The notes: generated by a model not told the origin, from the sequence alone. Counted from the first letter of the stretch, positions 7,367 to 36,500 are shown. The stretch is 64,000 nt of DNA from Balanoglossus misakiensis (GCA_040954595.2 CM082588.2:10896844-10960843); one strand, 5' to 3'. Made by a program: numbers and translations.

Positions 7367-7896
7367 ACATGGGGATTAAATGCATATGCGTGTGTATTTA
7401 AAGTTAACTGTAAATCCCCAGGTTAATACGTGGCCAAAAGCACTGTAATTTGGCATTTCTAATGATGGTGAGATGTTGTTTGCTCCCCAGGGAGTTGAAT
7501 GGAATATTTAGGTCCAACATCCTAGCTCAAATGACCATGGGACAACTTAAAGCACGTTGAGATTTAATGTGCTACATAAGTTATAAATATTATAAAAATA
7601 TTATTACATAAACAACACTCTTCCTTAGCAAAGGAAGTGGTCAGGTGAAATATATTCGCAGAGCTGACCAATTCTTTAAGGAAAATTAAAGTTGGGTAAT
7701 TTGGATGTATTCATACGAGTGTTGGTCAATGATAGGAAAGTCCTTTGTTCATTTTCAAAATGAAAACCAAAAATGCGAACAAAACACACTGAATTACGTA
7801 TGGGATATTGATGTTGCCTAATTTGCGTGACTCTACATTTACTTAAACTCTCACAGGGAGACAAATGTCACAGCAAACGGAAAAATGATTATGCTA
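7367..7896 (+). repeat. ~520-bp repeat, copy 2
   Basis: Matches 3268-3790; truncated where the 2-kb duplicated segment begins. Confidence 0.85.
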
Positions 7897-7898
7897 AG

Positions 7899-9867
7899 CA
7901 ATACGCCAACCTTTAAAATATTACTTTAGAAAGTTTGTATTCATACTTTCTTCAAGTTGTCATAACGCTACCCCAAAATGTGTTTAAGTATTGCCTTTGT
8001 ATTAATGGGCTAGATTCATGGCGTTATATGTCATAAATTAAAAAGCCAACCCTTATTGATTTTGATAATATTTATGTCGGAGAATCCACAATGAAAAATA
8101 TGTATTTCAATTTCATAACTCAAAATGATTTTCAAATCCATGACCTTATTTTCAACTCCAGTGATCGTACATCCTGAACCTTGTGCCAGTAAATGATTGG
8201 CCATTACAGGGTTAATGGGCACTCTCCCGTTCTCTTCCTCCGCAGTTTCATTCATGTTCTTGTTTGACGGAAATGGGTGTGACCAGACGCTTGAATGTTT
8301 TCATGTGGGTGTCGTTGTTCATCGGGATCGGTCTCCTGGTGTGTCTGTACAGGTACGCAAGGAGAAACTGCCCACAAGAAGCTGCGAGTGAAACTATTTA
8401 AGGTAGTATGTGCCTCGCGGTCCGAGATTCAGACAAATGATAGTCCTCAAAACTTTTTCAAGTCTTTGATTTACTAAAGTGTATGGTGAGTCTCTTTGAA
8501 AACAACAAAAACATTACTCACCATATTGTTATTTTTTTGAAAGTTTAAAATGAAGTTGACAATGTACCAAACAGATTCTATTTATTTCTTCATGACCATG
8601 TTCACCCCAAGGTCATATGGACCTGCAAGTATATGCCAGAGCCAGAGTCGACATTACCGAAGCCAGAGTTCAAAGCTTGCAGGTCACCCCTTGCCAGCTC
8701 ATGTCTAGCTAAACTGCCATGGATGCCAAGAGATATAGGACTACAGTAACCTGTAGATGGTTTCAGTATGTTTGAAGAAAGTGGTGGCGCACTTTTGGCT
8801 ACATTTGAAATGGCTATGGTACCAGTGGTTGAATTTGCAAAGGTGACCTTTGACCTGGTATCATTAAAGATATTAAAGAACGATTGAACATTCCTTGTTG
8901 TCGTAAAATGACATCTGTAATAACTTATATTTTATCTGTTCATCTTGAAGTACTATATATTTAAACGCCAATTTTCCATTGCCAATCAAGTTTTTACAAA
9001 TAAATTGTAATATGCATGTTGATTTTACAAAAACTCCTTACTTCCAAGTGAATTCTGTTACACATCACGTAAATATTTTCCCCACGAATTCTTCAGTTGC
9101 TGACTCGGAAATTTCATATATTGGGCAGAAATTGGATACATTACCGAGCCATTAAAATTACAGTTTTCTATTTTAATTGATCTTCCATAACTTCAAGTAC
9201 TTTGATTTGACATAAATTAAAAACATCATGGTGAATAAATAAAAAATCTTTGATTATCTAATTGTGCATGTTTACATGGTTTTATTTTAGTATGCTGGGT
9301 ACTTAATGTCTAATTGCTCGCTGATTTTATACTGTTCAAGATGACAATCTAATTTTAGTTTTCAGCTGATAATGGAAATCACTGATTAAAAAAATTGAAT
9401 TTTGTCATGAATAAACTTGTTGTTCATGGCAGTTGCTGTATTTTGTTTCATGTGTATTCAATTTTTGCAAGAATACCATTGAGCACAGTTTGATTTGATT
9501 AAACACGTTTATCGGAAAATTTTGTCATTTGAAATATCTGTTTTTGCGCCCTCTACCATTTGACCAAATGATTCTCTTATTTTGGTGGCCTTTGTCTGTG
9601 TATATGAGAATACTATAGTACTCTCGCATCGATGATAGTAGAAGTTGAAAACGTCTCTTGCCACGTGGCCTAGAAGAAAGGTGATCTTTAGAGTAAAATA
9701 AAACAAACTATCCAGATAGGAAGCTAGAAAAGAAGTTGAATCGTTGAAATTTTATTTATTTTTATATTGTTAATATCGTTGGTGATGTTGACTGGCCGAC
9801 AATCTTTGTCACACCAGTATTTGCAGGTAGATTAAAACATTGCCTATTCCAGCAATAATCACAACAG
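7899..9867 (+). repeat. ~1.97-kb duplicated segment, copy 1
   Basis: caatacgccaacctttaaaatattac ... cagcaataatcacaacag is repeated nearly identically at 24701-26668; the same short ORFs appear twice in the ORF track. Confidence 0.95.
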
Positions 9868-11716: not shown

Positions 11717-13489
11717 TTGGAAGGGACTGCTTTAAAAGATTATGTTAGAGAGGAACAAATTAGACAGAGGGATCTTAGGGCTACTGAGAGAGAGGAGCAG
11801 AGAGAAGATAATAGGCGGCGCGAGGAACATGAGAGAGAGATACTGAAAATGCAAATTCACTTACAAGAATTAAAATTGAAAGGGGAAAATACAGAACAGC
11901 AGGTTACTGAAAATAATTTGGCCAAAGCGCGTGCTCCGAGACTACAGGGTTTTCGTGAGGATGTTGATGATATGGATGCGTACCTTCAACGTTTTCAGCG
12001 CTACGCCACTGCTCAGAAGTGGGAAAAAGATGACTGGGGGTGAATCTCAGTGCATATTGTTACAAGGTAAGGATGTATCCACATACAACCAAATGCCTGC
12101 AGCGTCTGCAAATAATTATGATGAATTGAAACCAGAGTTATTGAGGGCTTACCAGTTAAGTGAGGAGAGTTTTCATGACAAGTTCCGTTCGTGTATGCCA
12201 CATTATGATGAAAGTGCTCAAAAGTTTATGGACCGTATTGGTGACTATTTGGGCAGATGGGTAGAACTGGCTGGTACTCCAAAGACGTACAATGGGCTTA
12301 CAGATCTGTTACTTCGAGAGCAGTTTATTGGAGTATGTTCCAGAGACATGGCAATGTTCATTAGAGAGCGACGGCCAGAGAATGTCCAAGAGATGGTATC
12401 TACTGCCTCAAAATACTTAGATGCCCGAGGGTGGTGGAAACTGCCAAGTAATGCCAAGAATAATCCAAGGAGCCAGCCGACAGCAAATACCAAGCCTGCT
12501 GTATATCCAAATCAAGTAAATAAGTTTAATAACAAAACCAATGGTTCCCATGTTTTTAAAGGTACGTGCTTCGTATGTGGTAAAGGTGGTCATATGGCCA
12601 AAGATTGTAGAAGTAAGCCAAAGATGCATAAGACGGCGGTATTGTTAACTGAAGAAGATAGAAACTATCCACCTAAACAAGAATGTACACATTGGGGCAA
12701 CCGTCAACAGCCCAGGGGACTAGACACTGGTTATGCATGTATGGTGGTAGCAATGGAAATAGATAAAACAGATGCAACACTGAATAAGGAGTTCGTGTTA
12801 CCATGTGGTCATAAGCTCCCAGTGATGAGTGCTGCTTGTAGTGCCCATGGAGTGAAGAAGATGCCGGTAATGAAGGGATTGCTCGATGGTAAGCTGGTTA
12901 GCGTTTTGCGTGATAGTGGGTGTAGTAGCGTGGTAGTTCGAAGAAGTCTGGTGTCAAGTAATCAGCTGACTGGTGAGTACAGGACGTGTGTTCTGATAGA
13001 TGGGACTATTAGAAGAGTACCTGTAGCCTCTATAAAAGTTGATACCCCTTACTTTGTCGGTGATGTTACTGCACTGTGCATGATGAACCATGTGTATGAT
13101 TTAATACTGGGCAACATTGATGGTGTATCTGACCCTTCGAATCCTGATACTACATGGCAGGAACCATTGCCGACATGTAGACTGTGTACAACTGTTGGAC
13201 AGGTACCAGGTTTAGCAAATGCTGTGGAGACCAGAGCCCAGAAGATAGCCAACCAAAAACCAATCAGAGAGCTTAAAGTACCTAAAGCTGTTGGTGAAGT
13301 GGTGATGCCAGGGAAGCTTCAACAAGCTCAAGAAGAAGACTCCACTCTTGACAAACTACGTGAGAAGGCAATTTTGGGTGACGAGAAAGTGACTAGGAAT
13401 GGAGGTAGGTTGAAGTTCATCATGAAAGATGGGATCCTGTACAGAGAGTTCAATTCGCCAATGGTCCAATTTGGTGAAAAGCTGTTACA
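11717..13489 (+). pseudogene. Gmr1 gag-protease (frameshift near 12040)
   Basis: Coiled coil, DDMDAYLQRFQRYA, SCAN-like DLLLREQF...FIRERRPENVQEM, CFVCGKGGHMAKDC, VLRDSGCS and YDLILGN. The ORF tail after 13489 reads into the inserted transposon. Confidence 0.88.
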
Positions 13490-13531
13490 CACTGCGGGAA
13501 ATACTAGAGCTATGTTGGGCAGTATTCCGCG
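13490..13531 (+). repeat. Left bipartite terminal inverted repeat
   Basis: CACTGCGG, 18-nt spacer, then TGGGCAGTATT at 13516-13526, followed by CCGCG. Confidence 0.85.
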
Positions 13532-13573
13532 AAGCGCGAGCTCCCATGTTCACCATAGCAACGCATTGCCAAG

Positions 13574-14224
13574 ATGGCGGCGCCCGTGTTGATCGATGCC
13601 GAGAAAGTTATAAAACGCAAATTGCGAGAGGCAAAATCTGTGCTTAAACGTAAAAAATGCGTGTCGGACAATCTGTATATACACCCACTCTTTGATGAAC
13701 TTGAGGATGTGACAACAAGGGCCATATTTCGAAACGACAAGCTGTCAAAGGACAAGATTCGTTGGCGTGACGTCGCCGTATTTCCCATGTTTCAGCGTGA
13801 TATGACCTACTGGCAGAAGACCTTCTACGCTCGGCTGTCAACATCCCCGTCGTTAAGGTCACCATGGCAAAGCAGCTTTACACGACAAATGCCGAGGGAA
13901 GTATTTGATGTTTTTCATCAGTTTGCTACTCGGACCGGTTTTGGTATCGACGAGAAGACCTCCAGGGCTATCATAACCTTGACCTTCACAAGTTCCTTGA
14001 AGCTATTGTATGTGATACGGAAAGGTTATTGCTACGAGGGCGCTATCGGTCAGCATACAGAGAATATCCTAGAGAAGAAAGTCCGTGGAAAGAGGGTAGC
14101 TGTTATATTCACACCTGAGAAGCCCTGTGTTGTGAAATATTTTATCAACAGGGAGACTGTTGCTGTTAGATTCAGCTTTGGTGCCTGGAACAAACATGGA
14201 ATCCCATTACATCCAGAGAACTGA
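13574..14224 (+). CDS. Intact 216-aa orphan protein carried by the transposon (putative accessory subunit)
   Basis: Uninterrupted ORF, strong start context ccaagATGGCGGCG, located 84 bp inside the left end; AATAAA at 14353-14358. No motif recognised. Confidence 0.75.
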   Translation: MAAPVLIDAEKVIKRKLREAKSVLKRKKCVSDNLYIHPLFDELEDVTTRAIFRNDKLSKDKIRWRDVAVFPMFQRDMTYWQKTFYARLSTSPSLRSPWQSSFTRQMPREVFDVFHQFATRTGFGIDEKTSRAIITLTFTSSLKLLYVIRKGYCYEGAIGQHTENILEKKVRGKRVAVIFTPEKPCVVKYFINRETVAVRFSFGAWNKHGIPLHPEN

Positions 14225-15076
14225 ACCCTATTGATTTTTCACACTGATTCAACCCATCTGAGGAACATTTTTTTCCTGATCTGTGGCACATGTTGTTCAG
14301 TGTAGATGTATCAGTCTGTCAAGACAGTCCTCTCACAATTGACATATATTCAAATAAAAAAAGGAAAATTAGAAGACTCAAAAATTCATCACTTGTCTTT
14401 ATTTATCTACATTCAATACAAATGAACAGATAATGTTTACAAAATTTCCTAAACTGTAAAATTCTTTTTTTCCATCATTATTGTAACATAGATTTTTCAT
14501 TAGTTTCAGAAAAAAATGTATGTTACCTACAATCAACATTGATAAGTCAATCAAAACTGCTCATCTAACAGTTAACCAGGATTTCTGGTCTAAATTTAAT
14601 TAATATTTACAATTAATTCCATGACAAAATTTATAAATATCAAGAATTTGATGAGACTTAATTCTTTATTTTTTCACAAATTCATTAAAATTTCGTGCAG
14701 GTGCAGAATAAACAACTCCTCAAGAAAAATGTAAAACTTTTCTATCAAGCTTATGTATGTCATACATTTTAATTTTGCAAAGCACTGCAATCACTATACG
14801 ATTAAGGGTTTATTCACAATACTTAATAGTGGTAAGATAAGTTTCAATTTCCCTGTCCCCATACATGCACACATATACAAAATCCCATAAGAAACATATC
14901 ATCTCCAGTTCAAAAAGTGTGAATTCATGTGATTTGTGATCTCCATTTTTATTAAATGCAGCTCTCAACTACAGATGAGTCTTTATAATTCTGTAATGTA
15001 ATTAATACTATAGTTATCCTTTAATTCTAAAGTAGCACACAGTGACACAATCCACTGTTTCAAATTCAATCATTGT

Positions 15077-17317
15077 TCACAGCATAAGTTTCTTGAGTTT
15101 ATTTGATATTTTACCAGTGACAGCTGCTTTTTTTATGTCATCCATAATTGGGTCAACACATATTTCACAGGCAGTCATTGTTTCATTTTTTTAAATTGCC
15201 ACACATACAGTAGCCTGCATTCTCATAATATCGACTGGGAATGTATTTTTCTTTTTCTTTAAGCTCAAATTGACCTACATTTGCATTTCTATAGTTGTCA
15301 GCTTTTGGACTTTTGTTCCTCAGCCAAAAAAGCATCACATATTCGTGTCGAAATATGAGGGCCCACCTATTTTGAGGTGTAGAATTTTCACTGAATTCTA
15401 GCAGGCGTAGATGCTTTGCCTCTCTGCCTTCCATTGTGTTTAGGCCTAATCCCAGACTGAATTGCTTATAGATACTAGTGGTGTGTTTTGGGACTACATA
15501 ACCAATGTGCCACACAGTATTATTGACATTCAGAAACAGGGAATGTAGATTAAAGTACCACCGACACTTATGCCTAAGTACAAGCAAATCTCCCTCATTT
15601 ATGTTGAATCGTGAGAATAACAAAGTGATATCTCTAAGCAAGATACCAGTATATGTGTAGAGAGCTAATTGAGCCCGACGCTTTGGTCTGTCTGTATCGC
15701 TTCTCAATGCTAATACCAATCCTATGAAATGCCAAGCAAGTTTGCGAGACTCCTCACCAGTGAAGCGATAAACCACATTAATGTTGGCATTTGACTTGAC
15801 ACTATTTTCATTGAAGTATTTTACAATCTTATTATACAACTTTCCAGCTTTTACTTGATATTTTAGGGCAGACAGGAATTTGTACAGATATGACTCGTTA
15901 GGTAGATTCTCAATTTTAACTCCATTTTCACGACCCTTTTCCGAAGTGTGGGCAACTGCGTCAATCAGTAATCGTTGGAAGTAGTATTGCCATGCATTGT
16001 TCTTTAAATGCAATGGCTCAGCCTTGGCACAATCAATAAATCTACCCAACGGTGGTACAAATTCCTGTCTTGACCTCAGACTGGCTATAAATTGTGTGAT
16101 TTTGGGTCGCACTGTTTTGGGCTTTCCAGTTTTAATTTTCTTAGTTGACTTCAACTTTTCAACAGCTTCTGCATCTTTAATTCTTTTCTGATATTTCCAT
16201 TCATCCCACTTCTGACCTGGGCCAATTTCTGCTCCAATACAATCAATATCATTTTTGGAACGTTAGCAAATGAGCTGAAATACTTTGCTGCATTGCTTAG
16301 TTCTCCAGACACACTGGCCAATCCCTTCTGATCAAAGGGTAAAAGTGACACCTGAAAAGTTACATCAAGACTGCCAACTTTATATTTACGTTTCTCAATA
16401 CACTCAAGGTCTTTTGACAATGCAATTGCAAATTCAATCATTATGGGGTCATCCTCTTTTATGTTTGCCCCTAATAGGAGAAAATTGTGGTCTGGGCTAG
16501 CAACACGGTGGGTCACATTCAAGAAACTAACTAGCCATGCAGTGGCCTGTCCATGTTTGCCAAACGGAGCCCCGTCAGCACCTATACTGATTTGAAATGA
16601 GCCCTCCTGTTTACCGAACCAGTTAAGAATATCAGGCTGTGTTTCCCCCATATTTAAATATAAACTGGCAATCTTAATAAGCAACTCCTCAGGGTTTCTT
16701 TTTAAGCCGACTTGTTTGCCTTCAGATGATATAATTGGCTCAAGATTTCCAATGTCAAGGTTACTTACATACTGTACAACTTTTGTGTATGGGAGCAGTC
16801 TTGGTATTCTACAGCCAGAATGAATTTCTAATGCTTTCCTAGGATGTTTCAAGTTGGAGAACATCTGAAGTTCACTCTGCCTCAGACAGTTATATTTTCG
16901 TTTGGATAGTACTCCGCCCTCATACATAGTTCTGACACTCCTCACCAAATTGTTCTCACTTTTCTCAAATTTACTGATGTATTTATCAAATACTGATGGC
17001 ATTACTTTTTTACTGATTTGGGGAGAGGTTCTGAAGAATGTTTTCATTTGGTCAGGAGTGGCAGAATTAACAAGAGTATACCACAAACCATCAAGTGCTG
17101 CTTTTGGTGGATGTAGTACATTCGGTTTATTTATACCTTTGGCTGGGCTTACATCTGTAGTTGCTACATGAATATTTATGGCTGCTGATAAGGTTTCACA
17201 CCTACGTTCATACTGTTGACGTCGCGACAGCTTCAAAGATTCACTATTATCTGCACATACTTCAGTGTTCTTGTGGACCCATTTAGAGCGTTTCACATTA
17301 ACAACATCAACAGGAAT
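15077..17317 (-). pseudogene. Main exon of a RAG1/Transib/Chapaev-like DDE transposase (two 1-bp frameshifts, near 16260 and 15190)
   Basis: ISIGADGAPFGK (D1, 16574-16576), LPFDQKGLASVSG (D2, 16331-16333), EPLHLKNN, YRFTGEESRKL and GLGLNTMEGREAKH (E, 15420-15422). Acceptor tctttcag| at 17318-17320. Frame repair joins the 381-aa and 323-aa ORFs and extends to TGA at 15077-15079. Confidence 0.8.
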
Positions 17318-17670
17318 CTGAAAGATTAAGTGTGTGATAAATATATACTAATTAGAATATAATCATTATATATAAAATAAAATCTTCTTACAAGTTAATC
17401 ATTAATTTAAATGTCCTTGATAAGAAATACACACGTGTAGCCTGTATTTTTCTGACAACTTCTGCAATAAAAATCCTAAAAAATATACATAGTTTGTTGG
17501 AAAACCTAGATGTTTTGCATCAAAGCTGAACCCATTTTGTTATCATTGTTTACACAGGATCATGTGACATGAAGTTCAAAAAGCGAATTTGGGCTAAAAT
17601 TTGAAGAGGATTTATACAAATCTGAGATTTTTAAAATTATGACTAAGTCTATTTATCTGATCTAGCTTAC

Positions 17671-18114
17671 CTTTCTCTTATTATTCTTTGTAGCTAAGAT
17701 CTCACAAATCTTACTGTTCTTCTTCTCTAGTCTAGCTAGCTGGGTTGAGGATCTTTTTACTAGTCTCCTAGCTGCACTCAACTTATTCAACTTATCCTGA
17801 ATTATGCTTTCTTCCTCATCTCTCTTTCTCTTTCTCTGTCTACACCACTCTCCTAAGTTAAACCTGTGTTTAGTCTGTCCTCTCTTTGTTCTAACTACCA
17901 ATAGGTTGTTGGCCACGCTCCCAGACAAAGATCTAGTCTTCAATTTCTCCTGATATAGTTGTTGTAAACACTTCTCTTCAGCTACCTGTCTCGCTATCTT
18001 TTGGTCCTTTGCCCACTGGCCTATGTTGAAGTAACTTTTCCCTTTTCTATTCGGCATAACAATAGACAAACTTTTAAGAAGTGCGCTACTCCTGTTGAAT
18101 AGTTTGCCCCACAT
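17671..18114 (-). CDS. Upstream coding exon of the transposase (basic, helical N-terminus)
   Basis: gccATG at 18114. The donor AAG|gtaagc at 17671/17670 splices in phase 0 to the acceptor at 17317. An upstream acceptor ttttcag| lies near 18131, with candidate 5'UTR donors near 18266 and 18834. Confidence 0.7.
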
Positions 18115-18920
18115 GGCTCTAAATCTATACCTGAAAAGGGTGAACAAGAGAAATATCTTTACAATAATTATCTATCCGAGGGAAGCAAAAACAAAACACC
18201 TGCTCATTATACTTCCTCCAGAAATTGAGGTCAAAGGTGACATAGAAAGAATGTGGGTAACCTTACCATAACAATCTCGCCCATTCATTTTTTTCTTATT
18301 TCGTTTTCACCCTCGAATTTCCAGCGAATTATATCAAGAATATATTTTAGCACAAACTATTGGTTTCTGATTTTTCAGTTACGGTCTTATTTTCTGTCAA
18401 TTCTATGAACAATATCACCATGTCGCCGAAAATTCGAAGCGCCGCCATTACAATCAATGTAACCCGTGCTGCTGCCAAGGAACACACAGGGTCGTATATT
18501 TTCGCTTGGTATGATTTCGTCATATTGCTTGTAGCAGCATTTTAAACATGGAATCCTATGTTTACGTATAAAAGACTAAATTCGTATGGTTTTCAAATTG
18601 AAAAAAACAATTCTGTGAAGCTGAATCGTTGTAATTTTTAGTGTTTGTTTATGGTTGCTTAGGACGGCTTCTGCTATAGCAACGGCCAGGGACTGTCAGC
18701 GGGTGATCAAAATGTTCAAGTTATTTGGCTGATACACATAAATAACACAGCAGAATCGCAACTTTATTTCATATTGTCTCTGACATCTTGCTAATTTTAC
18801 TAAACAAAACTTGGAATAAAGCAATATTACTCACCGAATTATGCTGTGCATCGACAGCTGTGTTCGATCGCGAACGCCATTACTGTGTCTAATTAAATAT
18901 TCATGAGCTTCATAGGCTGC

Positions 18921-18963
18921 CACGGAAATACTGCCCATAGGTGGCGTCGTTCAAGCTGTAGTG
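18921..18963 (-). repeat. Right bipartite terminal inverted repeat
   Basis: The reverse complement reads CACTACAG, 18-nt spacer, TGGGCAGTATT (18927-18937), then TCCGTG. Confidence 0.85.
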
Positions 18964-18964
18964 A

Positions 18965-20970
18965 CAGGTGGTGGTTCCCAGAGTGTATCGTAACCAGGTG
19001 ATGAGACTAGCCCATGAATCAGTGCTGGGTGGTCACCACGGAACTCACAAGACCACAGACAAGATCCTCAGCAACTTCGTTTGGCCTGGGCTAACATCAG
19101 ATGTTTCCCGTTACTGTCAGTCCTGTGATTCATGTCAACGGACACAACCAAAGGGACGGGTGACCAAGGTACCACTTGGAAGTATGCCACTAATAGATAT
19201 CCCTTTCCTACGTATTGCAGTAGACCTGGTTGGCCCTATTCATCCATGCACTGAACGCAAGAATAGGTACATACTTACTGTTGTTGATTATGCAACACGC
19301 TATCCGGAGGCTGTTGCATTGACTAACATTGATACCAAGACTGTTGCAGAGGCGCTCCTGGACATCTACTCAAGAGTGGGGTGTCCACGTGAAATTCTGA
19401 CAGATCAAGGAACTCAATTTACATCAGATGTGATGCGTGAGGTCAGCCGGCTTTTGTCTATAAAGCAGATGACTACCACCCCATACCACCCAGCATTCAA
19501 TGGTCTAGTGGAACGGTTCAATGGTACATTGAAACTCATGCTCAGGAAGATGTGTGAGGAACGTCCAGCATATTGGGATCGTTATCTGAATGCTTTACTA
19601 TTTGCCTACAGAGAAACGCCTCAATCGAGCACAGGATTCTCTCCGTTTGAGTTACTTTATGGGAGGAGTGTGCGTGGTCCAATGGCTATCTTGAAAGAAC
19701 TATGGACTGGAGAGATCAGTGAACCAGAAACCAAAACGACTTATCAATACATCCTTGATCTTCAAAAGAAATTAAAGAAGGCATGCGATTTAGCAAGACA
19801 AGAACTGAAGATATCACAAGGCAAATACAAGTCCTACTACAATAGAAAGGCCAAATGGAGGAAGTTCAACAAAGGTGACGAGGTGTTATTGCTACTACCT
19901 ACTGACCATAATAAACTACTTATGCACTGGAAGGGTCCTTTTCCAGTGGTGGAGAAAGCGAGCAATATGGATTACAAGATTGACTTTGGTCATAGGGTGA
20001 AAACATTCCATGCCAACCCGTTGAAGAGGTACTATCGAAGAACTGATCAGCTAGATGAAGTATCAGCTGGACTTCTTGAGATTGTGTGTGTATCTGTGAT
20101 AGATGAGCAGAGTTATGAATCTTCAGAAGTACAAGAGAACACAGGGGTTAAAGTAAACGATGACTTACTGCGGGTTCCTGCATTCAAGCAGAAAGAATTT
20201 GCTGCAGATGTGAATGTATGTGACAACTTGTCAGACATACAGAAGCAAGTGGTGAGGAGGTTGCTGATCAATTACAAAGATATGTTAACTGATATTCGTG
20301 GTAACACCAACCTGGGTTTCCATGACATCAAGTTGATGGATCCAACACCAGTATGCAGTAGGCCATACCCCATCCCTCATGCACTCCGTGAAGCAGTGAA
20401 AGATGAAGTCAAAACGATGATTAAGATGGGAGTAGCTGAACCTTCAGAGAGTCCATATGCTGTTCCACTGGTAATGGTGAAGAAATCTGATGGGTCCAAT
20501 CGTTGTTGTGTTGACATGAGAAAGCTCAATCGCATAACAGTGTTTGATGCAGAGCCTACACCAGACCTGAGTGAGCTTTTTGCTTTTTGCTAAGTTATCC
20601 AAGGATCACTATTTCACTAAAGTAGATCTCAGCAAAGAATATTGGCAAGTCCCGTTGACTGATAATTCTAAACAATTGACGGCATTTATCACGCATGATG
20701 GGCTATACCAATTTATCAAAATGCCTTTCGGACTTGTAAATAGTGCTGCGACTTTTAGCAGAATTATGAGGAGATTGTTAAGAGATATGAAGAACGTAGA
20801 CAACTATATCGATCACATACTGATCCACACTGCATCATGGGAAGAACATATCAAGACAATTACAGATTTGATGAGCAGACTACGAAAGGCAAAGTTAACA
20901 GCGAGACCAACTAAGTGTTATGTGGGTTATGAGCAGATCGATTTCCTGGGTCATGTGGTTGGTCATGGTG
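18965..20970 (+). pseudogene. Gmr1 integrase followed by a truncated reverse transcriptase
   Basis: AHES..GGH...CDSC, IAVDLVGP, TDQGTQF, NGLVERFN and WKGPF, then RT motifs SPYAVP, VDMRKLN, KVDLSKEYWQ, MPFGL and YIDH (YxDD broken). A 7-bp gcttttt duplication causes a frameshift near 20580. Confidence 0.9.
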
Positions 20971-21084
20971 AACTAGTCCTGTTTCAAAATGACCTACATT
21001 ACAGGTCCTATGCACACGTATTACATGTTCTGATTGGTTTATCCACTTCTCTAAGGTCCACTTGCGGCTCGCTGATTGGAGGGA

Positions 21085-21330
21085 CCTTATGTGTTAGGTC
21101 TTATTACTATGTATTATTCACCAGACCTTGTAGGTTAGGTCTTATTACAATGCATTATTCACTTTACAGCTCCCTGATTGGTTAATGTGTAGGTCTGGTC
21201 CTCCAGTGTTCACTGCCTCATTATGCAGGACCTTGTAGGTTAGGTCTTATTAATATGTATTTATTCACCATACAGCTCCCTGATTGGTTAACGTGTCAGT
21301 CTGGTCCCCCCAGTGTTCACTGCCTCATTG
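21085..21330. repeat. Short tandem duplication (~110-bp unit)
   Basis: gaccttgtaggttaggtcttatta...acagctccctgattggttaa...cagtgttcactgcctcatt occurs twice. Confidence 0.7.
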
Positions 21331-24586: not shown

Positions 24587-24700
24587 AGCGTTAACATAAC
24601 TTTATCAGAATAAGTTAACGCCATAACTTTGACAGAATAAGAGTTGCCTCAAACGGCTCTAACCGAATTTCCATTAATAGCAGAACAAACAAGCTGTAAT

Positions 24701-26668
24701 CAATACGCCAACCTTTAAAATATTACTTTAGAAAGTTTGTATTCATACTTTCTTCAAGTTGTCATAACGCTAACCCGAAATGTGTTTTAGTATTGCCTTT
24801 GTATTAATGGGCTAGATTCATGGCGTTATATGTCATAAATTAAAAAGACAACCCTTATTGTTTTTGATAATATTTATGTCGGAGAATCCACAATGAAAAA
24901 TATGTATTTTCAATTTCATAACTCAAAATAATTTTCAAATCCATGACCTTATTTTCAACTCCAGTGATCGTACATCCTGAACCTTGTTCCAGTAAATGAT
25001 TGGTCATTACAGGGTTAATGGGCACTCTCCCGTTCTCTTCCTCCGCAGTTTCATTCATGTTCTTGTTTGACGGAAATGGGTGTGACCAGACGCTTGAATG
25101 TTTTCATGTGGGTTGAGTTGTTCATCGGGAACGGCCTCCTGGTGTGTCTGTACAGGTACGCAAGGAGAAACTGCCCACAAGAAGCTGCGAGTGAAACTAT
25201 TTAAGGTAGTATGTGCCTCGCGGTCCGAGATTCTGACAAATGATAGTCCTCAAAACTTTTTCAAGTCATTGATTTACTAAAGTGTGTGGTGAGTCTCTTT
25301 GAAAACAACAATAATATTACTCATCATATTGTAATTTTTTGAAACTATAAAATGAAGTTGACAATGCACCAAACAGATTCTATTTATTTCTTCATGACCA
25401 TGTTCACCCCAAGGTCATATGGACCTGCAAGTATATGCCAGAGCCAGAGTCGACATTACCGAAGCCAGAGTTTAAAGCTTACAGGTCACCCCTTGCCAGC
25501 TCATGACTAGCTAAACTGCCATGGATGCCAAGAGATATATGACTACGGTAACCTGTAGATGGTTTCAGTATGTTTGAAGAAAGTGGTGGCGCACTTTTGG
25601 CTACATTTGAAATGGCTATGGTACCAGTGGTTGAATTTGCAAAGGTGACCTTTGACCTGGCATCTTTAAAGATATTAAAGAACGATTTACCATTCCTTGT
25701 TGTCGTAAAATGACATCTGTAATAACTTATATTTTATCTGTTCATCTTGAAGTACTATATATTTAAACGCCAATTTTCCATTGCCAATCAAGTTTTTACA
25801 AATAAATTGTAATATGCATGTTGATTTTACAAAAACTCCTTACTTCCAAGTGAATTCTGTTACACATCACGTAACTATTTTCCCCACGAATTCTTCAGTT
25901 GCTAACTCGGAAATTTCATATATTGGGCAGAAATTGGATACATTACCCAGCCATTAAAATTACAGTTTTCTATTTTAATTGATCGTCCATAACTTCAAGT
26001 ACTTTGACTTGACATACATTAAAAACATCATGGTGAATAAATAAAAATTATTTGATTATCTAATTGTGCATGTTTACATGGTTTTATTTTAGTATGCTGG
26101 GTACTTAATGTCTAATGGCTCGCTGATTTTATACTGTTCAAGATGACAATCTAATTTTAGTTTTCAGCTGATAATTGAAATCAATGATTCAAAAAAATTG
26201 AATTTTGACATGAATAAACTTCTTGTTCATGGCAGTTGCTGTGTTTTGTTTCATTTGTATTCAATTTTTGCAAGCATACCATTGAGCACAGTTTGATTTG
26301 ATTAAACACGTTTATCGGAAAATTTTGTCATTTGAAATATCTGTTTTTGCGCCCTCTACCATTTGACCAAATGATTCTCTTATTTTGGTGGCCTTTGTCT
26401 GTGTATATGAGAATACTATAGTACTCTCGCATCGATCATAGTAGAAGTTGATAACGTCTCTTGCCACGTGGCCTGGAAGAAAGGCGATCTTTAGAGTAAA
26501 AAAAACAAACTATCCAGATAGGAAGCTAGAAAAGAAGTTGAATCGTTGAAATTTTATTTATTTTATATTGTTAATATCGTTGGTGATGTTGACTGGCCGA
26601 CAATCTTTGTCACACGAGTCTTTGCAGGCAGATTAAAACATTGCCTATTCCAGCAATAATCACAACAG
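24701..26668 (+). repeat. ~1.97-kb duplicated segment, copy 2
   Basis: Direct repeat of 7899-9867 with scattered substitutions. Confidence 0.95.
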
Positions 26669-29469
26669 GAGTGTGTCACACAGGAGACAGTTGGGATTAT
26701 AGTCATAATCTACCTTAGTTTGTTGTCAACAACCAGATGTGGTCGCATTCCGTGCATCCGTGCATATTTTGGAACAACGACTCTATCGAACAGACGTATT
26801 TCAAACACCTTGGAGAAAAACATCGATGACCAGTGGAATTGACTGTCGCTTGAAATCCGATAGGAATACACCTGTTTACGGTGGACGATACCGACACTCC
26901 TCTGCTAACTTAATCTGCTCTGCTAACTATACCTGCTTTGATTAAGTTGCGTCTAAAACTTTCCTTACAATACAATGTGGGTCTCGACTGTCGGTCCCAA
27001 CTATAGCGACGACAGCCTCGGTATGTTTCGCCGATAGCAATCCGGAGATGAAATTTGCATACAGCAATATCTTTCAAGATAAATAATTTATGTCCTAAAG
27101 GTATTACTTTTAGTGGTCTGACGGAGACGTTTTCTGCTGTAACATGCAAAACCTGCGGCGGACCTGAGGTCATGTTGCGAACACTGTAGTTTTGTTACGC
27201 CCGCCATCCTTCGGACGTTTACCTCATCGGGGCTTCTTTGGGGAATCAGCCACGTCCGAAGGGTGAGAGTGTAAATTCTCTCCCTCTCCTTCTCCACCCA
27301 ACATATTCATAGAGTCAGAGAGAGGTACCCGGCATATCGTAAACTTAACGAGAGGCATAACGAGACTTTCAACAAGTTTTCCGAGTAACACAAATAGTTG
27401 TGGTTTATTACTGGTCACACGTAAGAATTACACGACTCTATCCATGCTCGTTGACTCCCGTCACGGATCTCCGGTGATAATAATGTGATATCAAATTTCA
27501 CCACCTCTTATTAATACGTTAGTCAAGTATTATGTCATAAAAGGAACACGTCATCTTAATATTTCTTAAACATGAACTTAGCGCGTGATATCTCTATCTC
27601 GTTCTGACATGTATCAATTACACAATCTTGTTTACTCTGAGTCAAATACCTATTTTTTTTTGGTGATTTTCACCGATGTTTTTTTTTTCAAAAATCGACG
27701 AACCAATGATTTTTTTCAAAATCGACGAAATTTTGAGATTATGCAAAGTCGAAAATTTTTCATTTTTTGATGATTTTCACCCATGATTTTTTTCAAAAAT
27801 CTACGAAATTTTGAGATTTTGCAAACTCGAAAATGTGTCATTTTTTTATGATTTTCACCCATGATTTTTTTTTAAAAATCGACGAACCCATAATTTTTTT
27901 CAAAATCGACGAAATTTTGAGATTTTGCAGTCTAAAATGTTTCATTTTTTGATGATTTTCACCCATGTTTTTTTTTCAAAAATCGACGAACCCATGTTTT
28001 TTTTCAAAAGTCGACGAAATTTTGAGATTTTGCAGTCTTAAATTTGTCATTTTTTGATGGTTTTCACCCATGTTTTTTTAAAAAATCGACGAACCCGTGA
28101 TTTTTTTTCAAAATCGACGAAATTTTGAGATTTTGCAAAATCAAAAATTTGTCATTTTTTGATGATTTTCACCCATGTTTTTTTTTTTCAGAAATCGACG
28201 AACGCATGTTTTTTTTCAAAAATCGACGAAATTTTGAGATTTTGCAGTCGAAAATTTGTCATTTTTTGATGGTTTTCACCCATGTTTTTTTAAAAAATCG
28301 ACGAACCCGTGATTTTTTTCAAAATCGACGAAATTTTGAGATTTTGCAAAATCAAAAATTTGTCATTTTTTTGATGATTTTCACCCATGATTTTTTTTCA
28401 AAAATCGACGAAATTTTGAGATTTGCAGTCGAAAATTTGTCATTTTTTGATGATTTTCACCCATGATTTTTTCAAAAATCGACGAACCCATATTTTTTTT
28501 CAAAATCGACGAAATTTTGAGATTTTGCAAAGTCGAAAATTTGTCATTTTTTGATGATTTTCACCCATGTTTTTTTTTTTCAAAAATCGACGATATTTTG
28601 AGATTTGCAGTCGAAAATTTGTCATTTTTTGATGATTTTCACCCATGATTTTTTCAAAAATCGACGAACCCATAATTTTTTTCAAAATCGACGAAATTTT
28701 GACATTTTGCAAAGTCGAAAATTTGTCATTTTTTGATGATTTTCACCCATGTTTTTTTTCAAAAATCGACGAACCCATGGTTTTTTTTCAAAAATCGACG
28801 ATATTTTGAGATTTCGCAAAGTTGAAAATTTGACATTTGTTGATGATTTTCATGAGCTACAGCCAATGATTTTTTTTTCAAAAATCGACGAAATTTTGAG
28901 ATTTTGCAGTCGAAAATTTGTCATTTTGTTGATTTTCACCCATGTTTTTTTTAAACAATCGACGAACCCATGATTTTTTTTCAAAATCGGCGAACTTTTG
29001 AGATTTGGAAAATCGAAAATTTGTCATTTTTTGATGATTTTCACCCATGATTTTTTTACAAAAATCGACGAACCCATGATTTTTTTCAAAATCGACGAAA
29101 TTTTGAGGTTTTGCAAAGTCGAAAATTTTTCATTTTTTGATGATTTTCACCCATGTTTTTTTTTAAAAATCAACGAACCCATGATTTTTTTTCCAAATCG
29201 ACGAAATTTTGAGATTTTGCAAAGTCGAAAATTCACCCATGTTTTTTTAAAAAATCAACGAACCCATGATTTTTTTCAAAATCGATGAAATTTTGAGATT
29301 TTGCAAAGTCGAAAATTCACCCATGTTTTTTTTCAAAAATCGACGAACCCATAATTTTTTTCAAAATCGACGAAATTTTGAGATTTTGCAAAATCAAAAA
29401 TTTGTCATTTTTTGATGATTTTCACCATGATTTTTTTCAAAAATCGACCAAATTTTGAGATTTTGCAGT

Positions 29470-32400
29470 TAGTGCGGTATGGTATGTCATGAAAAACAGC
29501 TCCCGTAGGATTGTTGTGCTAAAATTGATTTTTTTGCTGTTTTGGCTTCTATTGGGACCCAACTACCCGAAAATGATGGGGTGCAATTTTAAGGGCCCCT
29601 CCATCATATTTTTCTCGGGGGGGGGGTACTTCCGTTTTGTGGTATGATGTGTATTCCCGTAGGATTTTTGTGCTAAAATTGATTTTTTTGCTGTTTTGGC
29701 TTCTATGGGGACCCAACTACCCGAAAATGATGGGGTGCAATTTTTAGGGCCCCTCCATCATATTTTTTCGGGGGGGGGGGGGGGGGGTCGTCACTCCTGT
29801 TTTGGCCTCCCCGAAGATATTTATTCACCTATCTACTCCATTTTCGTAGAATTTTCTGCTAAAGAATTTTTTTTTGCTGTTTTGACACCTGGTCACAAAA
29901 GATCACATGCAAATTTTAGGGCCCCTCTATTACATTTGTGGGGGGGGGGGGCACTTACATTCCGACAATCTTAACGGTATTTGTTCACCTATACCGTGTA
30001 TTCTCGTAGGAGTTTTTGCTAATAGTTATTTGTTTTGTTTGCTGTTTTGGTTTCAATGATGAATAAACATCCCCAAAATGATGGAAATCAATTTGTTGGA
30101 CCCCTCCATCACATTTTCTTGCAGGGGGGGGGGTCACTTTAGTTTTAGCAGCCCTGGAGATATTTGTTCATAGTGTGACATGTGTATTTGTAAAGGATTT
30201 CTTCCAATTTCTTTTTTTTTAACTTCTATGGGGACCTAACTGCTCAAAAATGAGGTCAAATTTTAGGGCCTCTCCACATATTGGGAATCTTAAATATTAG
30301 ACGGTTTATGGGTAAACATATCAGTTACCTACATTTGTATCAGTTGTCATATATACTACAGCGCTATCTTATTTTTATAAATATACTTAGTTGAATTTTG
30401 ACACTAACAAATCAACCACAAATATCTCTCTGGTTTGGACTTAGCATAATATACCTCCCCTCACCTTGGACCGCCACCCAACTCATCACCACACTCATGT
30501 TTTCTATGGTTTACAAAAATATAGTATACTAGGCTATACCAAATAGTGAACACCTATTGCCTGGCCATGAGGGCCATAGCAGCCGTTTATTACACCCGAG
30601 GGGCCGTGAGTTACCAGAATCATATGCATATGATTCTGGTAACTTTTTCGTTAAGAGTTGTTTATTCTTTCGTAGCACAATCAATGTCTGAGATATTTAC
30701 CATTGTACTAAAATTCTCATCGATATAAGTCTGTGCATAAACTCTGAAGTACGTTTTAATCAACACTTGTTTTTTGGGGTATTAAAACGATATTCAGTTG
30801 AACTCATTTCAAAGTTAAATACTGTCGTAAATAAAGCCATATCAGTTGAAGTATTGTCTATTTTAAAGTAGTATTTTCAAAATTTTCATGCCAATAGCAA
30901 AATAGTGCTGTAAAAAGCCCTTGAACTATGTCTTACTTCTAAAACTTGTTTTGGTAAACATTAACAATATCAAATTTGGCTCATTTTGTAGCTCAATACT
31001 ACTGAAAATAAAACAAGTCTGTGAACTACATCTCAGTTTTATTACTAAATACATATTGGCTATTTTCTTAGCACCGTAAGCAGCGTTTTACGTTCCAGTT
31101 CGATAGCTATTAGGACATTTTGCAATAAACTACAGAATTAATATGTAGATAAAAATAAGATTTGCGTGATCTGTGAAAAGGGTGCCACCCCTTCATCACA
31201 ATGAGAGATAAATCATACGCAACAAATTGTCCTGAACTTCCCCCAATCAAAAAGAATGGGTGGAAATCGGAGAATGGCGTGTTTTATCCAGTAAAATGTC
31301 TTGCTCTCCCTGCACCAAAGGCAGTACTAGAGCTTATCAAATGTGGCTGCAAAGCAGGTTGTAGGGGACGTTGCAGTTGCTCAAAGAATGATTTACTATG
31401 TACTCCCCTCTGCAAATGCTATGGTGGAGACTGAAAACCAGGGGGAAATGTTCTTGAAGATAACGACACTGGCGATGAGTAGATCAAACAGAACTGGGTT
31501 TCGTGAAAATGATGATTGAGAATACCAAGATATCAGAAAAGAATCGTTATGCTTCTTGGGTTGTTTATTGCACCGTCCGTGGTAGGGAGGGTGCCTCAAG
31601 GGTCCATTTTATGAGATGGGACTGTAGCTCGGAAAATAAACTAAAATACACATTATGTACTTTATTATATATAAAGGAGTTTTAATTTACCTTAGTATAC
31701 TAAATTTAGAATAAACGAAAAAATCTAAGATAAAAAAAAACTACTGTTACAACGGGTTGGCGAAAACAAATATAGAGAACCCCCCCCCCCCCCCCCACCA
31801 AAAAATGTGGTAAAGGGGTCCAACATTTTGCACACCATCACTTTTCGGCAGTCAGTCTGCATTCAAGCCAAAGGAGCAAACCAAATTGCAAGAAATACCA
31901 CGACAATACTAACCGTATAGTAAATAGGTGAATAAGTATCTTCAGGGTGGCCAAAACAGAAATGATTACCCTCCCCCCCCCCAAGACATGATGGAAGGTT
32001 CCAAAAATTTGAACCCCATCATTTTAGTTCTGGTGGAGCCCCATTGAAACCAAAACATCAAAGAAAAATAATATTTTTAGCAAAATATTCTATGAGAAGG
32101 GAGTAAATAGGCCAACAAACAACTTCGGAGTGGCCAAAATGGAAGTGCCCCCCCCCCCAAATAAAAAATGATGGAGGGGCCCTATAATTTGCACCCGATT
32201 ATTTTTGGCCAGGTTGGTCTCCTCCAAAGCAAACACAACAAAAACAAATTAATTGTAGCCCAAATTCCCATGATGATAGAGTAAATAGGTGAACAAATAT
32301 CCTCGAGTGACCAAAACAGAAGAGACCCCCCGAAAAAAATTGATGGAGGGGCCCTAAAAATTGCACCCCATGATTTTTGGGTAGTTGGGTCCCCATTGAA

Positions 32401-33550: not shown

Positions 33551-36500
33551 CAAAATCTCAAAATTTCGTCGATTTTGAAAAAAAATCATGGGTTCGTCGA
33601 TTTTTGAAAAAAAACATGGGAGAAAATCTTCAAAAAATGGGAATTTTGTCGATTTTTGAAAAAAAAAATCATGGGTGAAAATCATCAAAAAATGACAAAT
33701 TTTCGACTTTGCAAAATCTCAAAATTTCGTCGATTTTTGAGAAAAATCATGGGTGAAAATCATCAAAAAATGACAAATTTTCGACTTTGCAAAATCTCAA
33801 AATTTCGTCGAATTTTTGAAAAAAAACATGGATGAAAATCATCGAAAAATGACAAATTTTCGACTGCAAAATCTCAAAATTTTGTCGATTTTGAAAAAAG
33901 TATGGGTTCGACGATTTTTAAAAAAAATCATGGGTGAAAATCATCAAAAAATGACAAATTTTCGACTTTGCAAGAACTTCGAGATTTTCGTCGATTTTTG
34001 AAAAAAAAAATCGTGGGGGGGGGGGGAAATCATAAAAAAATGACAAATTTTCGACTTTGCAAAATCTCAAAATATCGTCGATTTTGGAAAAAAAACATGG
34101 GTTCGTCGAAAAAAAAACATGGGTGAAAATCATCAAAAAATGACAAATTTTCGACTTTGCAAAATCTCAAAAGTCCGTCGATTTAAAAAAAAAACATGGG
34201 TGAAAATCTTCAAAAATGACAAAGTTTCGACTTTGCAAAATCTCAAAATTTCATCGATTTCTGAAAAAAATCATAGGGGAAAATCATCAAAAAATGACAA
34301 ATTTTCGACTGCAAAATCTTAAAATTTCGTCAATTTTTGAAAAAAATCATGGGTAAAAATCATAAATAAATGAAAAATTTTCGACTTTGCAAAATCTCAA
34401 AATTTCGTCGATTTTTGAAAAAAATCATGGGTGAAAATCATCAAAAAATGACAAATTTTCGACTTTGCAAAATTTTCAAAAATTCGTTGATTTTTGAAAA
34501 AAAAATGGGTTATAGCTTATGAAAATCATCAACAAATGACAAATTTTCGACTTTGCAAAATCTCAAAATTTCGTCGATTTTGAAAAAAATCATGGGTTCG
34601 TCGATTTTTGAAAAAAAACATGGGTGAAAATCTTCAAAAAATGACAAATTTTCGACTTTGCAAAAACTGAAAATTTCGTCGATTTTTGAAAAAAATAATG
34701 AGTGAAAATCATCAAAAAAGACAAAGTTTCGACTTTGCAAAATCTCAAAATTTCGTCGATTTCTGAAAAAAATCATGGGTAAAATCGTCAAAAAAAGACA
34801 GATTTTCGACAGCAAAATCTTAAAATTTCGGCAATTTTTGAAAAAAAATCATGGGTAAAAATCATCAAAAAATGACAAATTTTCGACTTTGCAAAATCTC
34901 AAAATTTCGTCAATTTTTGAAAAAAAAATCGTGGGGGGGGGAAATCATCAAAAAAATGACAAATTTTCGACTTTGCAAAATTTTGAAAAATTCGTCGATT
35001 TTAAAAAAAAAACATGGGTTCGTCCATTTTTGAAAAAAAAAACATGGGTGAAAATCATCAACAAATGACAAATGTTCAACTTTGCAAAATCTCAAAATTT
35101 CGTCGATTTTTGAAAAAAAAAATCGTGGGGGGGGGGGGAAATCATCAAAAAAATTACAAATTTTCGACTTAACAAAATTTTCAAAAATTCGTCGATTTTT
35201 GAAAAAAAAAAACATGGGTTCGTCCATTTTTGAAAAAAAAAACATGGGTGAAAATCATCAACAAATGACAAATGTTCAACTTTGCAAAATCTCAAAATAT
35301 TGTCGATTTTTGAAAAAAAATCATGGGTTCGTTGATTTTTGAAAAAAAAACATGGGTGAAAATCATCAAAAAATTACAAATTTTCGTCTTTGCAAAATCT
35401 CAAAATTTCGTCGATTTTTGAAAAAAAAAATCATGGGTAAAAATCATCAAAAAAATACAAATTTTCGACTTTGCAAAATCTAAAAATTTTGTCGATTTTT
35501 GAAAAAAATCATGGGTGAAAATCATCAAAAAATGACAAATTTTCGACTTTGCAAAATCTCAAAATTTCGTAGATTTTTGAAAAAAAATCATGGGTTCGTT
35601 GATTTTTGAAAAAAAAAACATGGGTGAAAATCATCAAAAAATTACAAATTTTCGAATTTGCAAAATCTCAAAATTTCGTCGATTTTTGAAAAAAAAACAT
35701 GGGTGAAAATCATCAAAAAATGACAAATTTTCGACTTTGCAAAATCTCAAAATTTCGTAAATTTTTGAAAAAAAGTCATGGGTGAAAATCATAAAAAAAT
35801 TACAAATTTTCGTCTTTGCAAAATCTCAAAATTTCGTCGATTTTTGAAAAAAAAAATCATGGGTAAAAATCATCAAAAAATTACAAATTTTCGACTTTGC
35901 AAAATCTAAAAATTTTGTCGATTTTTGAAAAAAATCATGGGTGAAAATCATCAAAAAATGACAAATTTTCGACTTTGCAAAATCTCAAAATTTCGTCGAT
36001 TTTTGAAAAAAATCATGGGTTCGTTCAATTTTGAAAAAAAACATGGATGAAAATCATCGAAAAATGACAAATTTTCGACTGCAAAATCTCAAAATTTTGT
36101 CGATTTTTGAAAAAAAATCATGGGTGAAAATCATTAATAAATGACAAATTTTCGACTTTGCAAAATCTCAAAATTTCGTCGATTTTTGAAAAAAAATCAT
36201 GGGTGAAAATCATCAAAAAATTACAAATTTTCGACTTTGCAAAATCTCAAAATTTCGTCGATTTTTGAGAAAAATCATGGGTGAAAATCATCAAAAAATG
36301 ACAAATTTTCGACTTTGCAAAATCTCAAAATTTTGTCGATTTTTGAAAAAAAATCATGGGTTCGTTGATTTTTGAAAAAAAACATGGGTGAAAATCATCA
36401 AAAAATTACAAATTTTCGAATTTGCAAAATCTCAAAATTTCGTCGATTTTGGAAAAAAAAACATGGGTGAAAATCATCAAAAAATTACAAATTTTCGACT

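Follow-up and report, generated by a model that had tools for sequence, protein, structure and literature searches.

The window analysed here, a stretch of 64,000 nt from Balanoglossus misakiensis (GCA_040954595.2 CM082588.2:10896844-10960843), contains a transposon with two genes placed tail to tail: a transposase with the catalytic motif order of RAG1 and its relatives, and a small second gene, which we call the partner. The question raised by this locus is whether RAG1-type enzymes have acquired a helper protein on more than one occasion. We propose, with a probability of roughly 60%, that this is a cut-and-paste transposon whose transposase acts as a dimer with a RAG1 fold, and whose partner is an accessory protein promoting transposition. 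We regard the family to which it belongs as a new lineage of a known clade.

A two-gene transposon

The transposon occupies positions 13490-18963 of the window (5474 bp), with tips CACTG... and ...TAGTG. Its features are the following; those of the termini, duplications and genes come from the sequence, those of the catalytic residues from the alignment of homologues described below:

13487-13489: left copy of the 3-bp target site duplication, ACA
13490-13530, plus strand: left (partner-side) terminus, with a CACT tip and TGGGCAGTATT at 13516-13526, in register with the right end
13570-13578, plus strand: CAAGATGGC across the partner start codon, the reverse complement of the ProtoRAG TR5/YY1 site GCCATCTTG (PMC7481187)
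13574-14224, plus strand: partner gene, 216 amino acids, intact, tail to tail with the transposase
15077-17317, minus strand: transposase exon 2, with the predicted RAG1-fold DDE core and a C-terminal CxC...CxxC tail
15420-15422, minus strand: putative catalytic Glu (GREAKH), in 68/68 homologues
16331-16333, minus strand: putative second catalytic Asp (PxDxK), in 67/68 homologues
16574-16576, minus strand: putative first catalytic Asp (GADGAP), in 68/68 homologues
17318-17670, minus strand: predicted 353-nt phase-0 GT..AG intron, GTAAGC...TTTCAG
17671-18114, minus strand: transposase coding exon 1, 148 codons, basic, no CxxC; its start is uncertain, at 18114 or at a later ATG
18923-18963, minus strand: right (transposase-side) terminus, with a CACT tip and TGGGCAGTATT at 18937-18927
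18964-18966: right copy of the target site duplication, ACA

The ACA duplication cannot be lengthened to 4 bp. Both ends have CACT and the 11-bp block TGGGCAGTATT, located exactly at positions 27-37 from each tip; the termini are thus bipartite and form imperfect inverted repeats. The transposase is predicted to be spliced from two coding exons, 894 codons in all. Exon 1 weakly matches the N-terminus of one homologue, P0050 (E 0.004 among 76 proteins). Exon 2 is interrupted by two single-base frameshifts, one near 16258 and the other near 15190, in an A run. When P0001, the closest homologue, is compared with the window by tblastn, it matches three segments with 74%, 71% and 58% identity, changing frame twice. 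Contigs from sequencing run X1 carry both frameshifts, and one contig from run X2 has one additional base at 16258; both runs come from one sample, which may be the source of the window DNA. The frameshifts are probably not errors in the assembly of the window, because the X1 contigs show both of them, even if X1 may be its source. With two frameshifts, this copy is unlikely to mobilise itself; its partner gene is intact.

The original prediction, made from the sequence alone, had described an insert with these same bounds, CAC...GTG ends and an ACA duplication, together with a tail-to-tail gene of 216 amino acids and a spliced transposase of about 890 amino acids, with the motif order of RAG1, Transib and Chapaev. 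Our results agree with all this; the frameshifts were not mentioned in it. Among the checks that it proposed are the fold of the transposase, the convergent gene in homologues and 3-bp duplications in other copies. These three turn out in its favour, as described in the next sections, the fold by structure prediction for a homologue and the duplications in relatives.

The transposase has a predicted RAG1 fold

A search of longer proteins gave 76 transposase homologues among 3152 candidates. P0001 is found in the acorn worm Ptychodera flava and is 70-74% identical to the window transposase over the core. Other named homologues come from the genera Acropora, Porites, Desmophyllum, Actinia, Lineus and Owenia, and every one carries an uncharacterised or hypothetical annotation. 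We have not found any relative of the transposon in the viral contigs searched.

The family alignment includes 68 of these homologues. D181, LH370, F-x-G454 and GRE566xKH are invariant (68/68), and D262 is present in 67, in the order D..DxK..LH..R-F-x-G..E. The spacing between the second Asp and the Glu is 269-305 amino acids. Contrary to what is expected for this clade, a CxxC after the second Asp is absent in all 63 homologues where this region could be located. The tail motif of RAG1L, Cx2Cx3GHx4C, is found in none of the 68; an alternative C-terminal tail, CxC..CxxC, is present in 49. An H(3-4)H before the Glu is found in 31/68: the second His is nearly constant (66/68), while the first is variable, a Tyr in P0001 and in the window. 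An N-terminal CxxC appears in a single protein of the 68, some of the database proteins being devoid of the first exon.

Sequence comparison does not place these proteins. Searches of Pfam and PDB sequences with either half of the window transposase gave no match; the 68-sequence alignment found no transposase family in Pfam, with no match at the curated cut-off (best E 0.006), and as a profile against PDB sequences it found no RAG1, BbRAG1L or HzTransib at E<=10. Predicted structure does. AlphaFold models P0001 with confidence (pLDDT 91.4, pTM 0.89), and Foldseek gave 49 matches with E<=0.001: all those listed are RAG1, BbRAG1L or HzTransib, followed by the P element transposase. An independent aligner, VIA, gave Z 21.6 for RAG1 (root mean square deviation 4.1, 468 residues), 19.9 for BbRAG1L, 14.4 for HzTransib, 11.3 for the P element and 7.5 for the next one. 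The family is thus predicted to have the RAG1/Transib fold.

The partner gene accompanies the transposase

A scan of metagenome contigs gave 212 stretches with a relative of the transposase, of which the best 80 were kept as loci (L001, L003 and so on). We read these contigs as animal DNA, as the named homologues are all from animals. The window partner alone, used in tblastn, is found in 34 of the 80 loci (E<=0.001), always on the opposite strand and downstream of the transposase. Its frequency depends on the flank available: 21/22 loci with at least 2 kb, 33/37 with at least 1.4 kb and 34/42 with at least 1 kb; the profile used for these counts, partly made from the same loci, returned the identical 34. 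A separate observation concerns L010 (1039-1313), L011, L012, L063 and L073-L075, where an inverted partial copy of the partner lies inside the element, upstream of the transposase; it could pair with the partner transcript as double-stranded RNA.

The two genes have diverged together. Adding the window to the 33 loci whose two proteins are long enough, and removing redundancy, leaves 18 pairs, in which transposases are 30-88% identical and partners 12-82% (Mantel rho 0.52, p 0.0002); the two trees have four clades in common. Judging from these sequences, the genes have been inherited together for a long time; matching distances are not evidence of physical contact.

The partner sequences indicate purifying selection: the ratio of nonsynonymous to synonymous substitution rates (dN/dS) is 0.19-0.40 in five of six measurable pairs, synonymous sites being saturated in five further pairs. 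Conserved motifs are RR-L, PW, PxExF and a C-terminal YGxWNxxGxPQH. The window protein is basic, with an isoelectric point of about 10; 59 of 79 homologues are above 9, and R86, R87, K168 and K183 are conserved basic residues. Its model, built with 79 sequences, is confident (pLDDT 91.5) and shows a long helical hairpin, one more helix and an alpha/beta domain. A kelch propeller is ruled out, as the 216 amino acid model is too short and has a different architecture. Pfam finds neither kelch nor PHD in 26 members, nor any domain of an enzyme or chromatin reader. Descent from a duplicated part of the transposase is also ruled out (hhalign probability 0.3%). Fold searches gave no match with E<=0.001 or Z>=8; the N-terminal hairpin filled the wide list and the alpha/beta domain was never folded separately, a known fold being possible. 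The weak rows for YER067W, the RnlA N-terminal repeat domain, a TBP-like protein and AFV1 ORF99 (Z 5 or less where scored) are leads only. A complex prediction for the L003 transposase and partner had a score of 0.00; alignments were not used and the fold of the partner was uncertain in it, so we do not take it as evidence.

Pfam and PDB sequences were blank for the partner, as was a single-sequence word search, while profile and full-library searches did find homologues. The full-library search gave 81 clusters with E<=0.001. Of the 18 hits of the profile search, 17 carry a precomputed label, PF26709, which does not appear in the literature searched. We also note a nemertean protein of 613 amino acids (P0159, Tubulanus polymorphus) with a partner-like domain at residues 459-609 (E 2e-4), possibly a fusion, a domestication or a gene-model artefact.

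The partner starts very near the tip of the transposon. In 12 of 14 relatives its start has the motif AANATGGYG and lies 78-132 nt inside the tip; the window start lies at 85 nt. Because of this proximity, and since promoter activity is reported in ProtoRAG ends (PMC7481187), the partner-side terminus likely holds the partner promoter, by analogy. The CAAGATGGC nonamer may be merely the context of the start codon.

Termini and target site duplications in relatives

Relatives have tips of the CACG[CG][CT]GGG type, the first nine positions being set by the search pattern itself. An A-rich block at positions 23-25, present in 20-23 of 28 ends, lies outside this pattern and was not selected by it, which supports bipartite ends. 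Both ends are found in 12 metagenome loci, 11 of them with testable flanks. Five of the 11 have an exact 3-bp match (L003 GAT, L006 ATT, L049 TTA, L075 TAG and L076 ATT), the chance expectation being 0.02 per pair; none of the 11 has a 4- or 5-bp duplication.

L081 (4241-12782) gives direct proof of the 3-bp duplication. It is a complete element of 8.5 kb in which both genes are open, and ATA stands on either side of it. It is inserted in a 294-bp tandem array, where empty units carry ATA once and the filled unit carries it twice. This recurrence in relatives, with empty sites in L081, means that the duplication in the window is not due to chance. L081 was the only relative among 185,579 prokaryote genomes, in a contig assigned to a bacterial metagenome bin; its location in a tandem repeat array, and its 75% identity to the metagenome locus L018, suggest that the contig is probably animal DNA within the bin. 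As an independent observation, L047-L052 have a second left terminus nested about 845 bp from the first; the flanks of the outer one vary and those of the inner one are fixed.

Comparison with known transposons

The family is best placed within the CMCT clade or next to it (Kojima 2025, PMC12730594): CA..TG ends, a duplication of 2-5 bp and a RAG1-like DDE core are common to both. The clade is described with a C(2)C lying after the second D and before the E, absent here (0/63), and H(3-4)H is found in 31/68 of our proteins.

EnSpm/CACTA elements also have CAC..GTG ends with a 3-bp duplication. None of the 68 transposases has EnSpm Pfam domains. CACTA elements encode a second protein, with both genes in the same orientation; here the second gene is convergent.

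Chapaev3 and Chapaev resemble our family in their CAC..GTG ends, a 3-bp duplication (3-4 bp there), animal hosts and the LH motif (68/68 here). Chapaev3 is characterised (PMC4079192, PMC4411706) by a TWA duplication, a Chapa zinc finger and the motifs C(2)C and H(4)H. Here the duplications are ACA, GAT, ATT, TAG, ATT and ATA, only a doubtful TTA (1/7) fitting TWA; neither C(2)C (0/63) nor an N-terminal zinc finger is found, and there is a partner gene.

Transib (HzTransib, PDB 6PQN) has a RAG1-like DDE core (Z 14.4) and CAC tips as well. Transibs are not known to have more than one gene. They are described as encoding no RAG2-like protein (PMC10629977), and they keep SxxCxxC with a spacing of 206-214 amino acids from the second D to the E, RAG1 having 253 (PMC1131882); our family has a second gene, no CxxC, a spacing of 269-305 and no sequence similarity to the RAG1/Transib proteins of the PDB at E<=10. 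The original prediction had assigned a 5-bp duplication to Transib, which does not hold for all of them: the Nozomi-related Hayabusa and Transib-6 are reported to make 3-bp duplications (bioRxiv 10.64898/2026.08.26.747230). A 3-bp duplication is thus unremarkable by itself, being shared by Chapaev3, EnSpm and some Transibs. The claim that the combination of features matches no familiar family is supported, with the qualification that this single feature is not distinctive: defining features of ProtoRAG, Transib and Chapaev3 are absent.

The family may have been catalogued already, in Repbase, Dfam or as Pfam PF26709, under the name of EnSpm, Chapaev or Transib, so that only our structural reading would be new. 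We consider this unlikely on the whole, with an appreciable chance of being right. Elements with CAC..GTG ends and a 3-bp duplication do get filed as EnSpm (PMC12730594), the PF26709 label on 17 of 18 partner homologues indicates that this domain is already recognised as a family, and these elements are common in coral-type DNA. On the other hand, neither the 68 transposases nor the pieces of the window transposase match Pfam at the curated cut-off, the C(2)C said to be common to these groups is absent in 63/63, and the named homologues are annotated as uncharacterised. We have found no description of the family in the full-text literature searched, Repbase, Dfam and subscription journals being outside this search; the prediction had named a close match to a described family as what would speak against it, and there is none in the papers, Pfam and PDB, the three sources compared. 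Four family motifs were also not found in the supplement of PMC9435367, a weak result as its text gives DNA in 10-base blocks and five pages are images.

The role of the partner

In the mechanism that we propose, a transposase dimer would bind the terminal CAC and, about 23-37 bp inside, a second block. The element would be excised by nick and hairpin chemistry and inserted with a 3-bp stagger, by analogy with RAG, ProtoRAG and Transib (PMC10629977). The insertion domain is likely held without the canonical zinc, since the transposase lacks the CxxC that forms half of the RAG1/Transib zinc site. The basic 216 amino acid partner, putatively transcribed from a promoter in the terminus opposite the transposase end, would bind DNA or the transposase and support assembly or target capture, as a functional analogue of RAG2 with an unrelated origin.

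The main competitor of this role is that the partner keeps host silencing away from the element, or controls its expression, while staying out of cutting and joining. Anti-silencing accessory genes do occur in other DNA transposons, such as VANC in VANDAL elements. Binding to DNA or chromatin would be possible for a protein that is small and basic and has a sheet domain, and linkage and purifying selection fit this role equally well. Nevertheless, the partner is kept in a fixed place and orientation next to transposases which are only 30% identical, as predicted for a core component, and Pfam finds no chromatin-reader or enzyme domain in it. We hold an anti-silencing or regulatory role to be improbable, without being negligible.

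The relationship with ProtoRAG and other RAGL elements (BbRAG1L, PDB 6B40; RAG1, PDB 4WWX and 6DBI; TransibSU) is a different matter. They have in common with our family a RAG1-fold DDE core (Z 19.9-21.6, on the P0001 model), CAC tips, bipartite ends, a cysteine-rich C-terminal tail and two convergent genes between terminal repeats. If the element were a highly derived ProtoRAG-type transposon whose RAG2L had given way, in place, to an unrelated gene, this would account for the identical layout, for the TR5/YY1-like nonamer near one end and for RAG1 being the top structural match, above HzTransib; this higher Z may reflect an insertion domain of comparable length. The differences are considerable. 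RAG2L is a six-bladed kelch protein, usually with a PHD, and the partner is an alpha/beta protein; the duplication has 5 bp there and 3 bp here (window, 5/11 loci, L081); the CxxC of ZnC2 and the CTT* motif Cx2Cx3GHx4C are absent (0/63 and 0/68), with CxC..CxxC as the tail instead; the RING or Chapa N-terminus is also absent. The D2-E spacing is about 301, against 253 in RAG1 (PMC1131882), and the profile finds no RAG1, BbRAG1L or HzTransib sequence in the PDB at E<=10, when RAG1L and Transib proteins still average 26% identity (PMC9435367). Such a derivation therefore seems quite improbable: by their published motifs, our family is neither RAGL nor Transib/Chapaev3.

That the partner is neutral captured cargo has next to no chance and is already largely refuted: it would fit the lack of a partner in L037 and the homologous domain within the longer P0159, yet dN/dS is well below 1, open frames are retained at 12-30% identity and the position is fixed, within about 130 nt of the terminus.

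Several points weigh against the partner-assisted transposition that we favour. The action of the partner is our inference from linkage, selection and charge, its predicted fold offers no functional clue (best Z under 8), and hairpin chemistry is assumed here by analogy. The RAG1 fold is predicted for P0001, not for the broken protein of the window. Co-inheritance in one element yields matching trees whatever the partner does, and one near-identical pair of partners, with few differences, has a dN/dS of 0.75. L037 has no partner despite a flank of 6.1 kb, being a truncated copy with a stop; L001, L018 and L040 have none either, with flanks of 1.5-1.8 kb which are possibly too short: L081, a relative of L018, has its partner 4 kb away. 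The 3-bp match of L049 may be due to chance (4/11 remain without it, P 5e-5), and six of the 11 loci with both ends have no match. These six are probably collapsed assemblies of multiple copies, as several of them share one flank while the other differs.

A stronger version is also possible, and we put it forward tentatively: an old, undescribed RAG1-fold lineage which lost the canonical zinc site, with an obligate two-protein transpososome and a partner of new fold, would mean that the RAG1-plus-RAG2 arrangement was invented twice, independently, and that this second version is still intact in marine animals. Independent recruitment of the partner, as put forward in the original prediction, is likewise inferred, and its place as a second subunit is putative.

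The insertion site and its surroundings

The transposon splits the coding region of a retroelement, which lies outside it:

11880-21185, plus strand: frameshifted coding region of a Gypsy-type retroelement, from Pfam hits

When the flanks are translated separately, the left one has SCAN, zf-CCHC and weak protease matches, and the right one Integrase_H2C2 from its position 1, rve and RVT_1. The coding order is SCAN/gag, protease, integrase and reverse transcriptase, and the host carries frameshifts of its own. It resembles Gmr1-like Gypsy elements in its protease-integrase-reverse transcriptase order and the SCAN in gag. Direct repeats of 1975 bp, 96.9% identical, are found on either side (7895-9867 and 24697-26668); they are candidate long terminal repeats, with TG..CA ends not established.

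No contig of the two runs from this sample joins the host across the transposon, as an empty site would. At least three diverged relatives, with about 80-84% similarity, are also represented by contigs in this sample, which correspond to window positions 13515-13628, 15803-15888 and 16267-16363; one of them has a CACTAC tip before the partner start. Their depth is 114-262, far under the 1500-1700 of the transposon locus and its flanks, a weak hint that the composite locus has been amplified, contig depth not being the same as copy number.

An AT-rich satellite with units of about 78-79 bp is found at about 27650-29470 and 32600-64000, with higher-order periods of 106-107, 185 and 263 bp; its orientation is reversed near 33570. 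Positions 1-1702 have an open frame of 567 amino acids, whose start is similar, by eye, to the RNase H end of another retroelement pol.

Significance

Current models see one decisive event on the way to V(D)J recombination, namely a Transib acquiring RAG2L (PMC9435367, PMC10629977). A separate RAG1-fold lineage, with its own partner in a fixed tail-to-tail position, is a natural control for what a partner contributes to this fold, and it opens tests of how the 3-bp or 5-bp stagger and the zinc site are set. A direct assay is feasible with L003 and L081, which are intact and have both ends and duplications. The family also accounts for two widespread groups of "uncharacterised" proteins in the genomes of cnidarians and marine worms, and it marks a repeat family which annotation pipelines may miss. 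Taken together, our results suggest that RAG1-type enzymes acquired a helper more than once.

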